Shown here piece by piece: positions 42,001 to 48,646 of a DNA stretch of 48,646 bases (positions are counted from its first letter, which is position 1; each line of letters opens with the position of its first letter). Made by a program: the position numbers. The DNA comes from Nautiliaceae bacterium (GTDB lineage Bacteria; Campylobacterota; Campylobacteria; Campylobacterales; Nautiliaceae), in contig JBDONT010000010.1 of NCBI GenBank assembly GCA_039831155.1, positions 1-48,646 on the forward strand, in the 5' to 3' direction.

Positions 42001-45000
42001 TAACTGCCTTTCATTTGGATTTATGCAATTATAAAACTCAAGAGTGACAAAAAATGTCTGATTAAATCAATTTTATTAATTTACATTTCTTTTAATATAG
42101 CTTCTAAATCTTTTTTAAATTCATTTTTTAATTCTTCAGATTCTAATATTATTATATTAGGTATCCATTTTTTTATAAAAGGCAGAATTTCCATAGGTTG
42201 GGTGTAGGTCAGTTCAAAAATAACTCCTTCGTCGTTTTCTTCGATAAATTTTTGGGATGAGAGGAATTTTTTCATATCTTTTCTAAAATAATGAGCCACT
42301 TCTTTTTTTGCAAGCAATCTTGCTTTTTTAGGCTCCACTCCGTATAGAGTTAGTGAATTTTGTATATTTTGCAGGTATTTTTCATATTTTTCGACTGAAT
42401 TTTTTTGAAATTTTTTTTCTTTAAGTTTACCGTTTTCTTTGATGAAAACAGGCTTGACGTCTTTTATAAAAGATATTCTTAAAAATCTGAATTTTTCGTT
42501 TTCATCTTCACACGCAAGATACCAGTTGTTATCGATAAATACCAATTTTATAGCTTTTACTGTCAGCGTTTCTTCATCTTTGATTATTTTCAGGTATTTG
42601 TGTTCTTTTACGGCATTTTTTATTTTGGAAAAAAGTTTTTCTTTTGTTTTCAAATCCTCCATAATAGAGTTTTTGAAAATAAAGATGTTTTTTTCTGATT
42701 TAATGAGTTTTTTGGCTTTTTTTCTTGTTTCATCTTCAAGGTTTTTTAAATATTCCGGGTTTGTTTGGGATAAATCTTGTAAAATAAAACTTATATCATC
42801 GCTTTTTGTCAGAATTTCGAATATTATATCGGCGGTATCGTTTATTTTGTAGCATGTTTTTTTGTTTTTGAAATCTTTTTGTATGACATCTTCGCCAAAA
42901 TATTCTGCAAGTCCGTCGAGAATATCCTTAACTCTTCTTTCTACCTGGTCGAGATTTAAAATCTCTTTGATTTCCAAAGGGGTAAAACACTGTTTTGCAG
43001 ACATTAGCAGTTTCAAAACATCAAAAGCCTCTTTTGCTTTTTTATGAATCATATTAATTCCTTAAATAAATTTATTTTGCCATTTTTTGTCATCATAAAT
43101 GATTACAATTTTATCATAAATTATTGAGAAAGGATGGTCATGGGAAAAATTACTGAATTATTTGTAAAAGAACATTTAGAAAAAAACGGTATCAAAAGTT
43201 TATGGCATTTTACAGATCTCTCAAATTGGGAATCAATTAAAAAATATGGGATTCAGTCATTATTTAGAATAATCAAAGATGATATTAAGGTTTCTCGTTT
43301 CGGTGCAAATGCTTTATCTCATGATTTGGATTATTATAAAGGATTAGACAGATATGTTCATTTGAGTTTTACAGATGACCATCCTATGTATCATATTGCA
43401 AAAAAGGAAAAAAGAATAATAAATCCGATTTGGATAGAAATTGATATAAATGTTTTATTTGATAAAAAAGTATTGGTTTGTAAAGGTGTCGCAAACAAAA
43501 CAAACAGTGTTTTATTAAATTTAGCCGGTGTGTTGAACTTTGATTTTGATAAAATGTTTCATGATGATTTTGAAATAAGAAAAGAAGCAAGAAAAGCGGA
43601 AATACTTATATACGATTGTATTGAGACTAAATATATAAAAGGAGCTTATTATGGCAAGTAGACCGGCATTTATAGCAACTAAAAATGATAAACTTGTAGA
43701 AATTATAAATGTGGAATTTGAATATTTTACCGGATTTGCCGCTGTTCAAAAAGCAAAAACGAGAGATTCTTTTCATAATGCCATCAGAGAACATGGATAT
43801 GAAAAAATACTTGAAGTTTCTACTAATTCCGATAACGAATTAGGCTGGCAATTAAGCGCTTTTAATTTAATGACGGATTATGATGGAGAGAAAATTCCGC
43901 TTGAATGTGCTTTTCAGGGCAGTAAGGTATTTGAATACGGAGGGCCATATACGGATATATTCAAAAAAACAAACATAGAAGCCAAAAAAGACAAAAGACT
44001 CAAAAATTCCGGTAAAGTTATTAAATTTAGATATGAAGGAAACGAGTGGGAAACCGAACCTCAGACCGCATTTTACGACTGGTTGTATATTTCAACGGTA
44101 TATAAAAATTACCCGCACTTGATAGAAGAACTTGCAAATTATGAAGTTTTTACCGATATAGCCTTTAATCCGAAAAAATCAGTCAACTGCCAGGCAAAGA
44201 GCTGTGCTATTTTGGTATCATTGTATCATATAGGCAAACTTGAAGAGGCTTTGTCTTCAAAAGATAATTTTTTGAGAATTGTTTATGGATATAAAGAAAA
44301 ACCAAAACAGGGGAGTTTGTTTTAAAATTCATATAAATTGACATTTTTTGTCCTTGGTAACTAATATAATTTTAATATAACAACTTCCAAAGGAGGTCTT
44401 ATGGGATATTGGTTTGGAGAATTTAGCAATTGCACTTCTTGGAGAAAAACACCTGTTAAGATTGGCAATACCTGGTATACTCCAAGCGGAGAGAGGATAA
44501 GAAATCCTAAAGCTTATTTTACCAAAGTTAGAAGAAACGGCAGATATTGGGAAAATAATACGGGCTGGAAAAAATCCAATAAATTCTGTGAGCGTGAATA
44601 TGATGATTTTGATTATAATTTTGAAAACTATGATAATGAAGATTATGATTACAATGATAATTCATACGAAGAAGAACGCTGGGATTTGCGTGATATTTAC
44701 GGGGATTTTTATGATGATGAGTTTGATGATTATGAGTAATACTAAATATGCTGTTTTTAATATTGTGAAAAAAGGAAAAATTTTTATAGATGTTTGATAT
44801 AATTATATAAGCCTAGATATTGATGTCTGTGCTGTAATCGGCACAGGTCTATAAAAGTTAACACTTGTCTTCGCAATTTTAAAAGTGAAAGTAAAAAGTG
44901 AAATAGAGTAAGTAAATCTATCATTGCTTCGAATCCTAATGAATATCTAGGCTGTTTGAAAAAGGGAATAAGTGGAAAAGTTATTTAAATATATAAATCT

Positions 45001-48000
45001 TTATATTATAAAAANNNNNNNNNNNNNNNNNNNNNNNNNNNNNNNNNNNNNNNNNNNNNNNNNNNNNNNNNNNNNNNNNNNNNNNNNNNNNNNNNNNNNN
45101 NNNNNNNNNNNNNNAAAGTAAAAAGTGAAATAGAGTAAGTAAATCTATCATTGCTTCGAATCCTAATGAATATCTAGGCTGTTTGAAAAAGGGAATAAGT
45201 GGAAAAGTTATTTAAATATATAAATCTTTATATTATAAAAAATGCAAAAAATAAAAAGATAAAGCCTCTAACTAATATAAATAAATTGTATTATTTCGCA
45301 TATTTTTGCGATGATAAATTTATAACATTTGAAATTCCTAAATATAACGATAAAAAAAGAACAATATATACCACTAAATATAAAACTCATAAAATTATCT
45401 TAGAAGCTATAAATGAATATTTATATGAGAAAGTGAAACTTCCAAGATATGTTCACGGATATGTGAAAAAGAAAAATGTAGTTACAAACGCCAAAGTTCA
45501 CGTAGGTAAAAAATATGTTTTTAAAGTTGATATTAAAGATTTTTTTCCTTCAATTCACAAAGGTAAAATAATTTGGGCATTAAAAAATTATCTTAATTTA
45601 GATGAAAAACAGGCTTTTTTAATTGCTTCATTGGCTACTGTTAAAATTGATGGTAAAGAATTTTTACCTCAAGGCTTTCCAACTTCCCCAGTGTTATCTA
45701 ATCTGGTTTTAAAAAGAGTTGATAGAAGATTAATTGGGATAGCAAAAAAATATCATATAAAATATACAAGATATGCAGATGATATTACTTTTTCAAGTGA
45801 TAAAAATATTTTTGATGAAAATTTTATAAATGAGGTAGAAAAAATTTTAAATAAAGACGGTTTTAAACTGAATTATGAGAAAATAAAATTATTAAAAAAG
45901 GGCTACAGACAAACGGTAACCGGTTTGGTTGTAAATGAAAAACTCAATGTAAAAAGAGAATATGTTAAATTATTAAGAACACTTTTATTTTATCTTGAAA
46001 AAAATATTGAACAATATGGAAAAGGGGAAGGAATAAAAAAAGCTCAGATATTATTTGAAGAAAAAAGTAACTCAAAAAAAGATTTATTAAAAGTAATTGA
46101 AGGAAAACTTGCATATTTAAAGAATATAAAAGGAGAAGATGATTCAACATATAAAAAATTAAAAAGTAGATATGATAAGATAACCGGAAAAAATAAAACT
46201 AATTGCATTAATCATAATCCAAAAAAAGTTGTAGAAATTCTAAGTAAATTTTCAAATGATGAAGATTTAAAATTTGTTCTTCACAAATGGAGAGGAAGTG
46301 CTAATTTTACTTATGATGAATTTATAAAAAAAGTGAAAAATAAATGGAAAGAATATGAAAAAGAATTACATAAATTAAATTATAAATTAAATGCTAAAAT
46401 TTATAATTTTTTACTACATCCAAATCCTAAATGGGGAAATAATAAAGAAATAGAATATGGATGGTCATCACATAATTTAATAGAATGTTTTAGAAATATT
46501 CAAGACCCTTTTGATTGTGAATTAAATGATGGAAATGGTAGAAAATTTGAAGATATTATCAAGTTATTTAAAGAAGAAATTAGATTAAATGGAGAAAAAC
46601 TACTCAAATTAATTGATAATATAATCAAAGAAAATAATTTAAAATCAGAAAAAAAAGATTTAAAAGAAAGAGAAAAGCTCTACGAAATGAAAGAAACTTA
46701 TATAGATACTCAATGGTTTAAGATAGGTTTAGAAAGATTATTTCAAGGAATAAAAGAACATGGCAAAACTAATAAAATTGAATTACAATTTGAAGAGTTT
46801 GATGATTTTTATGAATTATATATTATTAATATAGATTCCAATGCAAATAAAAATCATAAAGAATTGATAGGAGGAGATTTTTCTTTTATTAAAGAAGCTT
46901 TTTGTTCAGTTGTAGATTGGAGTATTATTTGGAAATATAATAATCAAATTTGTAAGTTTGATGTTTTTAAAAATGAAGAAAAATTTCAAAATAATTATGA
47001 TTTTAGAGGATTTACACATAAAATAAAAATATATAAAAGAGTTATGAATGATTTTATTAGTTGAAGATACTCAAGTAAGATTAAATGGAATCAACTGTTT
47101 GAAAAATATCGAAATTGTTGATTATTTTGACAAATTAAAATTTAAAAATTATGAAATTATTTGTGTTCATAAATCTATAAAAAATTTTAATGAAAAAATT
47201 TTAATGGAATTAGATAAAAAAGTTGTGATTTTTAGTGGAGGAATTGAGGGATATTATTTTAAAAATAAAAATTTTTTAGAAATTGATGTTGATATTTTTT
47301 ATCAAAATTTTTGTGTTTTTATTGAGAGTAAAGAATTATTTAGTTTAATATATGGAAAAAATTATAAATTGAAAACACTTTTAGAATTTTACGATAGAAT
47401 TTCTTTTTTTGAGAAAAATAATGAAGAGTATTTGTCTTTTAAATTTGTAAAAGAAACTCATTATGAAAAAATTATAAATGTTTTCAATTTAGAAGAAATT
47501 AAGTTAGATTTAATTATTGAAAAACAAGAACTTATAAAATATAAAAAATACATTTATCACTTAATACAAAAGATGGCAAATGAAAACTTTATTAGTAATT
47601 CCTAATAATAAAAAAGATTTTTATAATACAGAAAAATTTAATGACACATATTATATCAGTTTAAAATTTGAAGATAACTTTGAAAAAGAACTCCAAAAGA
47701 GAATTAAAGAATTAGATAAGAAAGAATTTGATGTTATTTTTATAAAAGAAAGTTTAGGTCCTACTTGTTTAGATTTTACAGGTATAAAACTTGCTTGGTA
47801 TATTAGATTGCTTTCTAATAAACATAAATTTAAGCCTATTATAATACTTTCTAATTTTGATGCAGTTTTAATAAAAAAAATTACTTTTTTAGGTGATATA
47901 TTATTTACTCAGGGAGTTTATTTAATAGATGAATTTATTGAGGGGAGATTTACTCCTTTAAAAGATTATAAAAACTTTATAAATTTAGTAAAAATTCCGT

Positions 48001-48646
48001 TACCACTCGAATATAATTCAAATCACGATTTATCTAATGATTGGGCATTATATGTTTGGGCTAAAAATTTTGATGTAAAAATGGATAAATTATTCAAAAA
48101 GTTTGAAGAAAAATTTTATTTTCAATATTTAAAAGCAAAGTATGAACTTGAAGTTAAAAAACAAAAAGTTGAATTGAAAAATCAAAATTTAAAGATATTA
48201 GCAATAGACGATAAAAAAGAGTGGGGAGAAATTTATAAAAAAGTTGAAATAGAATTTTATAATATTCAAGATTGTAAATTTAATGAAAATATAATAGAAG
48301 ATTATGATATGATAATTTTAGATTTAAGATTAAGAAAAAAGGATTATAAAAAAGAACAAAAAATTCAAAATTATTATAGTTATAAATTAGTTGAGAGGTT
48401 TTTACAAACTAATCCCGCTGTGTGGATAGTAATATTTAGCTCCTCAAAGAATGCAGAAATAATTCAAGAATTTAAAAAATTTCCAAATGTAATTGACTAT
48501 ATTAAAAAAAATCATCCAGAAGATAAAGAAAATAATATTTTAGATTCTATAAATAAATTCAATAAAGCATTTGCTTGGGTAAAAGAAAATAAATATTTAA
48601 AAGAAATTTGGCAAATAAAAAGAGAAATAGAAGATATTTTAGAACA

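Follow-up and report, generated by a model that had tools for sequence, protein, structure and literature searches.

The window analyzed here, a whole stretch of 48,646 nucleotides, ends in a horizontally acquired operon in which a retron-type reverse transcriptase (RT) is fused to a kinase-like domain (HK) and is followed by two genes, mid and effector, whose products carry receiver-like domains. We lean toward reading it as a retron-based, probably anti-phage system in which the usual effector has been replaced by a two-component-style relay. In all counts below, G000 is the genome under study, and L-numbers (L010, L018, L038, L090) are related loci.

Organization of the locus

The genome-wide survey's note had described an RT of the retron clade that is fused to a HisKin-conflict domain, has an a1/a2 RNA in front of it and is followed by a small protein and by one with iREC and receiver domains. 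That overall reading holds, and the three genes after the structured RNA have the reading frames and coordinates first claimed. The features are as follows.

42081..43052, minus strand: WYL-WCX protein, 323 aa (Pfam WYL and WCX; PADLOC WYL 70.9 bits)
44810..44953, plus strand: candidate retron ncRNA (msr-msd), at least 144 nt (inverted repeat, fold)
45015..45241, no strand: assembly artefact, 100 N and a 127-nt exact repeat copy
45199..47064, plus strand: RT-HK fusion, 621 aa, GTG start (ORF call, Pfam, PADLOC)
47048..47605, plus strand: mid, 185 aa
47580..48646, plus strand: effector, 355 aa present, 3' end open at the contig end

The RT-HK and mid genes overlap by 17 nt, and mid and effector by 26 nt. 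The gap and duplication flagged by the survey are present: 100 N lie at 45015-45114, and 44888-45014 is identical to 45115-45241. We regard both as an assembly artefact because an 8007-nt public DNA contig (run X2) bridges them, joining 44974 to 45199 and skipping 224 bases. Positions 45199, where the RT has its true GTG start, and 44972 are one and the same base. RNA-library contigs from one sample, in libraries that may contain DNA, matched three parts of the locus with 0 differences: the structured RNA, the RT, and the junction of mid and effector.

Kinase-like domain, mid and effector

Residues 338-612 of the RT-HK protein (nt 46210-47034) matched the Pfam family HisKin-conflict with 127 bits against a cut-off of 27. 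The domain was C-terminal without exception, and its His362 was invariant in 36/36 sequences. Pfam HATPase_c matched 15 places in G000, the RT-HK domain not among them; the HATPase_c and HisKA models both left the domain undetected. A search of its profile against solved structures returned no kinase at E <= 10. Alignment by hhalign to 8 canonical G000 kinases gave a probability of 5% and an E of 0.008, which is not significant either way, and in this alignment the N-box Asn and the G1-box DxGxG were unconserved. The one positive kinase lead came from language-model neighbors with HATPase_c-type domains: HATPase_c (12% of members, score 0.96) and HATPase_c_5 (24%, score 0.94). We treat the domain as a putative kinase from its Pfam family name and these weak leads.

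The mid protein had been called an adaptor. A Pfam scan of mid found no family. Its residues 1-96 have a receiver-like fold with invariant His41, Ser63 and Tyr85, an invariant His occupies the usual phospho-Asp position, and the C-terminal half is helical. In 4 loci (L018 and three HK loci without RT) mid is fused to the effector; a detached regulatory domain of that protein describes it better than an adaptor.

The effector carries iREC at residues 12-116 (50.5 bits, Pfam cut-off 27), then a linker with invariant His149, then a receiver at about residues 205-325. The Asp210/Asp211 pair, Asp248 and Lys310 of this receiver were invariant in 16/16 sequences; the invariant Asp residues reported by the survey align and are kept in the G000 fragment too. 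The Response_reg domain claimed there was found in 14/16 homologues at E <= 0.01, but not in the G000 fragment at E <= 0.1.

About 160-250 C-terminal aa of the G000 effector are missing at the contig end. This part was not found elsewhere in the G000 assembly; DNA contigs of runs X1 and X2 extend 862 and 1240 nt, respectively, beyond the window end. The closest full-length homologues, P0154 (512 aa, 76% identity) and P0155 (526 aa, 74%), end in R-N-N-F-I-H. The pattern R-N-x3-4-H, with invariant Arg and His, was present in 14/14 full-length effectors and in P0154, P0155 and P0157. The C-terminal domain is probably HEPN-like and RNA-cutting, an assignment whose support is this motif. Searches with the effector C-domains by sequence and fold gave no significant match: Pfam Cas_Csm6_HEPN hit 1/14 members at E 0.11, and a domain model with pLDDT 58 gave uninformative fold matches. 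No DNA-binding output domain appeared in the effector domain scan.

The same parts could serve the same purpose with no phosphotransfer, HisKin-conflict being a degenerate non-catalytic scaffold and a bound protein, msDNA or nucleotide switching the receiver folds. We consider this unlikely, though well worth weighing. The blindness of HATPase_c to the domain, the unconserved box residues in the sole profile alignment and the failure of the sequence search to yield a solved kinase all fit a scaffold, and of the three domains with a receiver fold, iREC and mid (His in place of Asp) are plainly inactive. Kaur et al. 2021 cite conflict-system receivers that may need no kinase and act as switches responding to nucleotides. 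However, the hhalign result does not speak for either side, and the conservation of His362, together with a third receiver that keeps all phosphorylation residues, is hard to explain without phosphoryl chemistry.

Reverse transcriptase and RNA element

The retron-type RT spans about residues 27-330 of the RT-HK protein, with Pfam RVT_1 at 46-233 (nt 45334-45897; 77 bits). The best PADLOC RT models were RT-Protease_XI (292 bits), RT-TIR_XII (261) and RT-Toprim_I-C (227). As the survey had stated, PADLOC retron matches are confined to the RT part, with no PADLOC match for mid or effector, and every NCBIfam retron model scores below its cut-off. NAxxH, YADD and VTG are indeed invariant (13/13 RT-HK proteins); NAxxH and VTG are quoted as the motifs defining retron RTs in a passage of Toro 2026 (PMC13712802). 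The nearest solved relatives are retron RTs, Ec67 (E 8e-33) and Ec86 (E 8e-25). The RT tree placed G000 inside a mostly Bacteroidota clade having features of the lineage TXI_C2like, and the RT belongs to a retron type XI-like lineage. Kinase-linked RTs were scattered among kinase-less sister RTs.

The structured RNA closed by inverted repeats is present upstream of the operon, as claimed. The a1/a2 repeat (44810-44824 and 44939-44953) contains 12 perfect pairs, with 12-bp arms at 44810-44821 (a1) and 44942-44953 (a2). The fold of the G000 element has z = -5.59, which 0/200 shuffles reach. G44822, directly after a1, is unpaired in the computed fold and is a candidate branching G. L090 shares the 5' motif and the conserved 5' hairpin (44826-44847 in G000), and a compensatory change turns G-C into A-T. 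For this hairpin 83.3% of cells are paired and 5/6 pairs change on both sides, values reached by 0/500 shuffles. An a1/a2 repeat is anchored directly upstream of the RT start in 18/18 loci; a2 lies 19 nt from the start in G000 and 7-26 nt in 17/17 related HK loci. Scored in this anchored position, the repeat reached at least 25 in 17/17 RT upstream regions versus 9/144 upstream regions of control ORFs (real sequence).

The element measures 144 nt in G000 versus 167-272 nt in relatives, the G000 length being uncertain (at least 144 nt) because the gap sits within the repeat-bearing middle part. No Rfam family matched the element, and RNAalifold gave no consensus structure on global alignments. 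The short element, the lack of an Rfam match and the RNAalifold outcome would suit an RT that makes no retron msDNA and performs untemplated or other-RNA-templated synthesis, with the upstream structure as a leader or regulatory element only. We find such an RT improbable, given the invariant retron motifs, the best matches in PADLOC, NCBIfam and PDB (all retron RTs), the a1/a2 repeat before the RT start in 18/18 loci, the unpaired G in G000 and the covarying hairpin. In addition, a1/a2 RNAs with R-scape support appear for the lineage in a section of Toro 2026 (PMC13712802).

Linkage to other sensors

Eighty related RT loci were gathered with our own query set. The survey had counted HK in 27 of 80; our count was 17/80, but the all-or-none linkage was the same. 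Mid was present in 16 of these 17 loci and the effector in 16, the exceptions being L010, which ends at a contig end, and L038, which is without mid. The 63 HK-less RT loci had 0 mid and 0 effector genes. RT and HK were fused in 8/17 loci and adjacent genes in 9/17.

Among the best 68 HK-domain representatives, 41 had ankyrin repeats, 11 RVT_1, 3 DUF6804 and 13 nothing else. Within the order of G000, the non-RT HK loci encode mid, iREC, REC and the C-terminal domain as one fused effector in 3/3 genomes; two of these loci have ankyrin repeats and one is unassigned. The kinase, mid and effector are not confined to retrons. The cassette also stands behind ankyrin-repeat kinase proteins, the RT being one of several N-terminal sensors that can replace each other. 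In the HK-domain tree, 29/29 RT-linked domains fell in a set of 37 with 0 ankyrin rows (SH-aLRT 99); the RT-linked kinase domains are one clade.

Genomic setting

The operon has a GC content of 0.19-0.23 (about 20%), versus 0.31 elsewhere in the genome, and lies after tRNA-SeC (39684-39778). Its neighbors are DarT-NADAR and the WYL-WCX gene; DarT-NADAR and a 112-aa ORF lie between that gene and the operon. A WYL-like ORF was present in the fetched flanks of 10/17 RT-HK loci, 3/3 non-RT HK loci and 28/63 HK-less RT loci; the WYL-WCX protein is a possible transcriptional regulator, as a looser member of the system. In the phylum sample 5/401 genomes have HisKin-conflict; for other members of G000's family the count is 0/7. 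The operon is also found on a Chryseobacterium plasmid, with PIN, DEAD/DEAH helicase and AAA ATPase genes nearby. It is horizontally acquired.

A mobile low-GC island, a plasmid location and toxin-antitoxin neighbors that stabilize islands too (DarT-NADAR) might instead suggest an addiction or stabilization module of the island, or signaling with another output, but this is very improbable given an effector without a DNA-binding output domain, recognized parts that all come from conflict-curated families or retrons, defense-type neighbors here (DarT-NADAR, WYL) and on the plasmid, and sister RTs that carry TOTE-conflict helicases.

Comparison with known systems

Like retron types XI (RT-protease), XII (RT-TIR) and I-C (RT-Toprim), the system has a signaling or effector part fused at the RT C-terminus; these types supply the best-scoring RT models in PADLOC and NCBIfam, and Ec67 is a solved RT match. 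However, the matches cover the RT part only, with NCBIfam scores under the cut-offs, the fused domain here is kinase-like rather than an effector, and two extra genes are needed.

Ankyrin-sensor HisKin-conflict/iREC systems (PF22561, PF22563) have reportedly been described before, probably by Burroughs and Aravind in J Bacteriol in 2020. They share the kinase-like domain, mid and the iREC-REC-C-terminal effector, whereas the sensor here is an RT with its RNA and the RT-linked HK domains have their own clade. Most RT loci encode mid on its own, unlike the ankyrin loci and their non-RT relatives, where mid and effector are one protein.

Two-component phosphorelays likewise have an invariant His in a kinase-like domain and complete receiver residues, with kinase and receiver in one operon. 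In contrast, the HATPase_c/HisKA models miss our domain, the output is not DNA-binding, two extra pseudo-receivers are present and the input is a reverse transcriptase. Sensor-controlled HEPN RNases such as Csm6 resemble the effector in an all-helical C-terminal domain with invariant R-N-x3-4-H and in weak Cas_Csm6_HEPN leads, but no sequence or fold match is significant and control would be by a receiver, not CARF.

The closest published lineage is TXI_C2like, compared by description and with our own RT tree, no Toro 2026 sequence being compared directly. Common to both are an RT nearest type XI models, NAxxH and VTG, no protease, a C-terminal extension, an upstream a1/a2-flanked RNA, WYL genes nearby and iREC and HisKin-conflict accessories. 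In the sections of Toro 2026 (PMC13712802) on this lineage, Table 2 counts 12 loci for iREC and 12 for HisKin-conflict among the accessory clusters that are enriched in the protease-less TXI_C2like, WYL is the main accessory, a1/a2-flanked RNAs are described, and the lineage is reported in Bacteroidota only. G000 and L090 are of a different group, and we infer that this group belongs to another phylum (14 families in their sampled phylum; the rows listed are all of one order).

The survey's claim that the combination is unlisted stands for PADLOC and NCBIfam but not for the retron literature, where Toro 2026 has both domains; as a claim of novelty it was too strong. Those sections tabulate two Pfam names and mention no relay reading, mid or effector C-terminal domain. 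Both Pfam families (HisKin-conflict, iREC) come from conflict-system work. New here are the cassette behind ankyrin sensors, the receiver-like mid, the RT-linked HK clade and the island setting of the operon.

Proposed mechanism

In the relay that we favor, RT and RNA would make msDNA, and the msDNA, still bound to the RT, would serve as sensor. When a phage alters the RT-msDNA complex, the fused kinase-like domain would switch, and a phosphoryl group would pass from His362 to Asp248 of the effector receiver, which would turn the effector on or off. With this transfer mid and iREC, the two pseudo-receivers, would cease to inhibit, and the freed C-terminal HEPN-like RNase would halt growth of the infected cell. 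The nearby WYL-WCX protein may govern transcription. If this is true, the operon would be an anti-phage system that signals by phosphorylation.

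Anatomy of the operon

Contig C32, all of which lies in the window, is one of 43 contigs in the 1.53-Mb genome G000. Open reading frames and Pfam domains at its 3′ end agree with the three genes named in the genome-wide survey's note: a 621-aa reverse transcriptase (RT) fused to a HisKin-conflict domain (RT-HK), a 185-aa protein (mid) and an effector cut by the contig end. The features are as follows.

44810–44953: candidate retron RNA upstream of the RT, with a 12-bp perfect inverted repeat at its ends
45015–45114: assembly gap of 100 N, followed by an exact 127-nt copy of 44888–45014
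45199–47064, + strand: RT-HK, 621 aa, GTG start
47048–47605, + strand: mid, 185 aa, overlapping the neighbouring genes
47580–48646, + strand: effector, 355 aa present, open at the contig end

The gap and the duplication had been held against the locus. Both are present, and both are bridged by an 8007-nt DNA contig of public sequencing run X2, which joins 44974 to 45199 and differs from the window at 33 positions. Because this contig holds the duplicated stretch once, the gap and the duplicate are artefacts of assembly, and positions 45199 (the RT start) and 44972 denote one base. DNA contigs run past the window end by 862 nt (run X1) and 1240 nt (X2), so the effector is truncated by the assembly and not in nature. 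The tail of C32 showed no overlap with other G000 contigs. One X1 DNA contig has an extra G after window position 48102, inside the effector gene, which would frameshift that variant. We regard the anatomy of the locus as secure.

The reverse transcriptase belongs with retron RTs

Pfam placed RVT_1 at RT-HK residues 46–233 (77 bits). The best PADLOC retron RT models were RT-Protease_XI (292 bits), RT-TIR_XII (261 bits) and RT-Toprim_I-C (227 bits). As had been reported, these models cover the RT part only, mid and the effector have no PADLOC match, and every NCBIfam retron model scored below its cut-off. The invariance claimed for NAxxH of region X (N97, A98, H101), YADD (Y192–D195) and VTG of region Y (V240–G242) was seen in 13 of 13 RT-HK proteins. 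When a profile of these proteins was compared with solved structures, retron RTs came first (Ec67, E 8e-33; Ec86, E 8e-25). The enzyme thus combines region X, region Y and YADD with best matches to retron RT models.

Retron type XI has an RT with a C-terminal trypsin-like protease, whereas the C-terminal part of the G000 RT is HisKin-conflict. The RT-Protease_XI match stops at profile position 336 of 506, and Pfam found no protease family in RT-HK. In a Bacteroidales locus (L029), two retron-type RT genes stand in tandem at 4897–6381 and 6785–8374.

The lineage TXI_C2like, defined by Toro 2026 (mSystems, PMC13712802), is marked by a protease-less XI-like RT, a C-terminal extension, WYL neighbours, an a1/a2 RNA and Bacteroidota hosts. 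Judged by description, G000 matches these features, but it is apparently not a member of Bacteroidota. In the same paper, an a1/a2-flanked three-stem RNA is given for 37 loci, and Table 2 names iREC and HisKin-conflict, with 12 loci each, as enriched accessory clusters (odds ratio 62.4); by term search of the whole text, the two names occur solely in that table. A full-text literature search for the two Pfam families gave no relevant paper beyond Toro 2026, and a search for a retron or RT with a histidine kinase gave nothing on this architecture. The RT-kinase system is also absent from PADLOC 2.0.0 and NCBIfam naming.

The RNA element is closed by inverted repeats

The fold of the RNA element has a z of -5.59, a value matched by 0 of 200 shuffles. 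G44822, directly after the 5′ arm a1, is unpaired in the fold. The locus therefore carries what a retron ncRNA should show, an a1/a2-closed RNA beside the RT with a G right after a1. We searched for inverted repeats whose 3′ arm ends 5–50 nt before the RT start. Arms of 11–18 nt, ending 7–26 nt before the RT start, were found in G000 and in all 17 related RT loci with the kinase-like (HK) domain, with 0–4 of 40 shuffles reaching the score; the repeat of locus L090 is 17 nt. Scores of at least 25 occurred upstream of 17/17 RTs, compared with 9/144 non-RT ORFs from these loci. Anchored repeats at 18 of 18 loci bear out the a1/a2 claim for RT-HK loci.

TTGA follows the 5′ arm in 19/19 RNAs, in a comparison that was anchored on TTGA itself. 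G000 and L090 have in common TAGATATTGA and then a hairpin with loop TGTAATCG, with a G-C to A-T compensatory change. For 12 of the 19 RNAs, aligned with one another, a six-pair 5′ hairpin was drawn manually; the hairpins of the window, L090, L018, L038, L050, L051 and L056 did not align, and these RNAs were therefore omitted. In these 12 RNAs 83.3% of cells pair and five of six pairs change on both sides. None of 500 shuffles reached the pairing or covariation score and slid controls were all lower, in a test biased towards itself since the structure was drawn from the same 12 sequences. RNAalifold returned 0 pairs on global and 5′ alignments of the 19 RNAs, because variable inserts spoil the MAFFT alignment. 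An Rfam scan of 44300–45400 at E ≤ 10 gave a chance sRNA match only.

A short direct repeat (AAAAGTGAAA, twice) lies at 44881–44913 in the middle of the element, where the assembly breaks. The X2 contig has ∼30 extra bases at this repeat, and an RNA-library contig that is elsewhere identical to the window has different repeat letters before 45115. Copy number or content of the repeat thus differs between near-identical public contigs. Because the repeat number is uncertain, so is the exact RNA length in G000, for which 144 nt is a minimum. The repeat may be a length-polymorphic msd template.

The kinase-like domain

HisKin-conflict (PF22561) matched RT-HK residues 338–612 with 127.1 bits against a cut-off of 27, over profile positions 2–303 of 303; it scored 130.2 bits in the genome-wide scan. 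A HMMER scan of residues 330–621 against 1.84 billion representatives gave 241 matches at E ≤ 0.001. The kinase-like domain is C-terminal in all 150 listed of the 241. N-terminal partners in the best 68 of the 241 were ankyrin repeats (41), RVT_1 (11), DUF6804 (3) and none recognisable at E ≤ 1e-5 (13). The RT is therefore one of several alternative N-terminal modules.

His362 is invariant in 36/36 diverse kinase-like domains and is the candidate H-box His of a histidine kinase. Pfam found HATPase_c at 15 places in G000, the kinase-like domain not among them, and the domain profile matched no solved kinase among PDB sequences at E ≤ 10. hhalign to eight canonical G000 kinases gave a probability of 5%; the order of regions was sensible, and the N-box Asn and the G1 DxGxG were not matched. 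Among the domain's language-model neighbours from outside the family are clusters that contain HATPase_c (12% of members, score 0.96) and HATPase_c_5 (24%, 0.94), which we take only as a lead towards a kinase. With the invariant His on one side and the unmatched N-box and G1 motifs on the other, the main rival to a working kinase is the same system without phosphotransfer, built on a pseudokinase scaffold. We consider this rival rather unlikely.

The conserved W-G...I-x-Y-G-W-S-S stretch (RT-HK ∼412–424) gave the only match of the domain profile among PDB sequences, a non-significant one (E 0.16) to ryanodine-receptor repeat domains. A HisKin-conflict-like stretch (27.5% identical, E 5e-10) lies at 2861–3718 of MT837349.1, an unannotated 7-kb contig from a human faecal sample labelled "Bacteriophage sp.".

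The mid protein and the effector

No Pfam family was found in mid, and its profile matched nothing meaningful among PDB sequences. In the mid model, His41 lies at the end of strand 3, the place of the phospho-Asp in receivers. From the order of secondary structure, Glu6/Asp7 would occupy the acidic-pair position, Ser63 the Thr/Ser position and His41 that of the phospho-Asp. In four loci, L018 and three ankyrin-type and related ones, mid forms the N-terminal part of a fusion with the effector. Because of these fusions mid, described before as an adaptor, is more aptly regarded as a regulatory domain that can be detached from the effector.

In the effector, iREC (PF22563) matched residues 12–116 (50.5 bits, cut-off 27). 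The survey had assigned it iREC and Response_reg. The former stands, with iREC also in 13 of 16 homologues; the latter holds for 14 of 16 homologues at E ≤ 0.01, but Pfam did not detect it in the G000 fragment itself at E ≤ 0.1. The residues of a receiver are invariant in 16/16 sequences, namely the acidic pair D210 and D211, D248 and K310, and the invariant Asp residues of the earlier description are among them. His149, in the linker between iREC and receiver (window ∼48024–48026, effector alignment A4), is likewise invariant in the 16 sequences. It sits within an S-H-H-S-x-x-N-E-W motif, with a nearly invariant Asn four residues further. A phosphotransfer or catalytic role for His149 is conceivable.

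Full-length relatives have 550–628 aa; such forms fall in the "near" length band, and a search of the "longer" band gave no homologue. Their C-terminal part of ∼200 aa has no Pfam family and ends R-N-x3-4-H, with the Arg, the His and one Glu invariant in 14/14. The Rx4-6H ending given by the survey was thus found in all 14, and also in P0154 (76% identity) and P0155 (74%), the closest homologues of the G000 fragment, which have the same R-N-x3-4-H motif. From this motif and the helical content, we predict that the C-terminal part is HEPN-like. Its model is helical, with pLDDT 58. Searches by fold and against Pfam, PDB and the atlas yielded nothing beyond non-significant pointers to Csm6-type HEPN; among them, Pfam at E ≤ 10 found Cas_Csm6_HEPN in 1 of 14 C-domains (E 0.11). 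The C-domain profile matched nothing meaningful among PDB sequences, and its HMM had no match at E ≤ 10 in the six-frame G000 genome. PADLOC matches to PDC-M49A and PDC-S15, in one C-domain each, did not reappear in a scan of nine full-length effectors at E ≤ 0.01, with the PDC-M49A member among the nine.

Linkage and evolution of the cassette

We fetched 80 RT loci with a 13-sequence RT-HK alignment and scanned them with our own profiles. The HK domain was found in 17 of the 80; in 8 of these it shares a protein with the RT, and in 9 the gene after the RT encodes it. Mid and the effector each occur in 16 of these 17 loci; the misses are L010 (contig end) and L038 (no mid). Neither was found in any of the 63 HK-less RT loci. 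The linkage described in the survey therefore stands, with HK in 17 of our 80 loci where the survey counted 27 of 80. In the taxonomic order to which G000 belongs, three non-RT HK loci (two ankyrin, one unassigned) encode a fused mid-iREC-REC-C-terminal protein, and one RT-HK locus, L090, has the three-gene form.

An RT tree of 83 rows (quick IQ-TREE, LG+G4) placed every one of the 19 HK-linked RTs inside a single 55-row, mostly Bacteroidota clade (SH-aLRT 94). L090 is the sister of G000 (support 97). Within the clade, HK-linked RTs are interspersed with HK-less ones, as the survey had cautioned when it denied them a clade of their own. The HK label has to change 12 times, and starred branches force 8 or more of these changes; it is nonetheless more clustered than chance (0/500 shuffles as low). 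The HK-domain tree had 89 rows after rows with <200 aa of the domain, including L038, were dropped. All 29 RT-linked HK domains lie in one set of 37 without an ankyrin-linked row (SH-aLRT 99). The other eight rows of the set are proteins without context, several with the N-terminal extension of split RT-type kinases. Because the RT-linked domains form one ankyrin-free set, the trees suggest that the RT-kinase link arose once; the cassette would then have been lost or swapped repeatedly.

HK-less sisters have a WYL-WCX gene upstream and an unknown 250–335-aa protein downstream; in some of them the next gene is for an SF1 helicase carrying a TBP-TOTE domain. Such SF1 helicase-TBP-TOTE fusions, of TOTE conflict systems, lie at 5876–8002 of L003 and 4089–6314 of L005, two genes downstream of an HK-less RT and behind a protein of 265–335 aa. 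A WYL-like gene was present in the fetched flanks of 10/17 RT-HK, 3/3 non-RT HK and 28/63 HK-less loci.

Genomic context, distribution and expression

C32 is chromosomal and carries ligA, clp, rho, argS, selA and selB. The following features lie upstream of the operon.

39684–39778: tRNA-SeC gene, after selA and selB
42081–43052: WYL gene
43134–44325: DarT (175 aa) and DarT1-associated NADAR antitoxin (224 aa, 281 bits)
44401–44739: 112-aa ORF that follows NADAR and precedes the retron RNA; strong Shine-Dalgarno sequence

After tRNA-SeC the order is a beta-CASP gene, the WYL gene, DarT with its DarT1-type NADAR antitoxin, the acidic 112-aa ORF and the operon. The GC content of the operon is 0.19–0.23 compared with ∼0.31. 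A variable low-GC region, 39900–48646, starts after tRNA-SeC and looks like an island inserted at selC. The DarT and NADAR genes overlap by 11 nt, and PADLOC calls DarT weakly (28 bits). The C-terminal half of the 112-aa ORF is extremely acidic and rich in Asp, Glu and Tyr; no family was found for it in Pfam, PADLOC or NCBIfam.

Of 401 genomes sampled from the phylum, five, G000 among them, had HisKin-conflict over its cut-off; seven other genomes of the same family had no such match. The operon also occurs in a mobile context, on a 50-kb plasmid of Chryseobacterium oryzae ADR-1 (NZ_CP094531.1, from ∼11.3 to 16.4 kb), where RefSeq names its products "reverse transcriptase family protein", "hypothetical protein" (twice) and "response regulator".

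Those public runs containing the stretch that carry a label are hydrothermal vent metagenomes. Contigs from the RNA libraries of one sample match 44305–44903, 45115–46019 and 47543–47779 with 0 differences, and leave 46020–47542 and 47780–48646 uncovered, which has no bearing on transcription. They are compatible with transcription and no proof of it. One of them covers the 112-aa ORF and runs 94 nt into the RNA element.

Discussion

We slightly favour a retron in which the RT and the upstream RNA would make msDNA, the retron DNA product, and the RT-msDNA complex would gate the fused kinase-like domain. A kinase-receiver relay would then release the HEPN-like RNase of the effector, and the freed RNase would lead to abortive infection. 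Domain content, linkage, the patterns of fusion and fission, the conserved His, Asp and Arg-His residues, the RNA repeats, one covarying hairpin and the mobile context are the observations behind this proposal; msDNA synthesis, kinase activity, the direction of control, RNase activity and the defence role are its predictions.

A more specific version of this proposal seems doubtful to us. Here RT-msDNA would be the input of a true His-to-Asp phosphorelay, and mid, with its invariant His in the phospho-Asp position of a receiver fold, and effector His149 would be intermediate phosphoryl carriers or gates, setting a threshold before the HEPN RNase fires. If true, signalling by phosphorylation would be new for retrons, and an RT with its own DNA product would be new as the sensor of a two-component pathway.

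To our knowledge, how a "msDNA disturbed" signal is relayed to the retron effector is known for few types only. Kinase-based conflict systems were reportedly described by Burroughs and Aravind in 2020. A kinase-receiver relay would be a new retron signalling route, easily assayed by phosphotransfer, phosphomimetic mutants and Phos-tag gels. It is testable through cultured carriers, among them the Chryseobacterium oryzae plasmid, Chryseobacterium sp. Leaf405, C. gregarium DSM 19109 and Mucilaginibacter antarcticus KCTC 52232. The cassette shows modularity, in that one kinase/pseudo-receiver/effector unit works with sensors of two types, protein-binding (ankyrin) and nucleic-acid (RT and RNA), and it would permit these sensing modes to be compared side by side.
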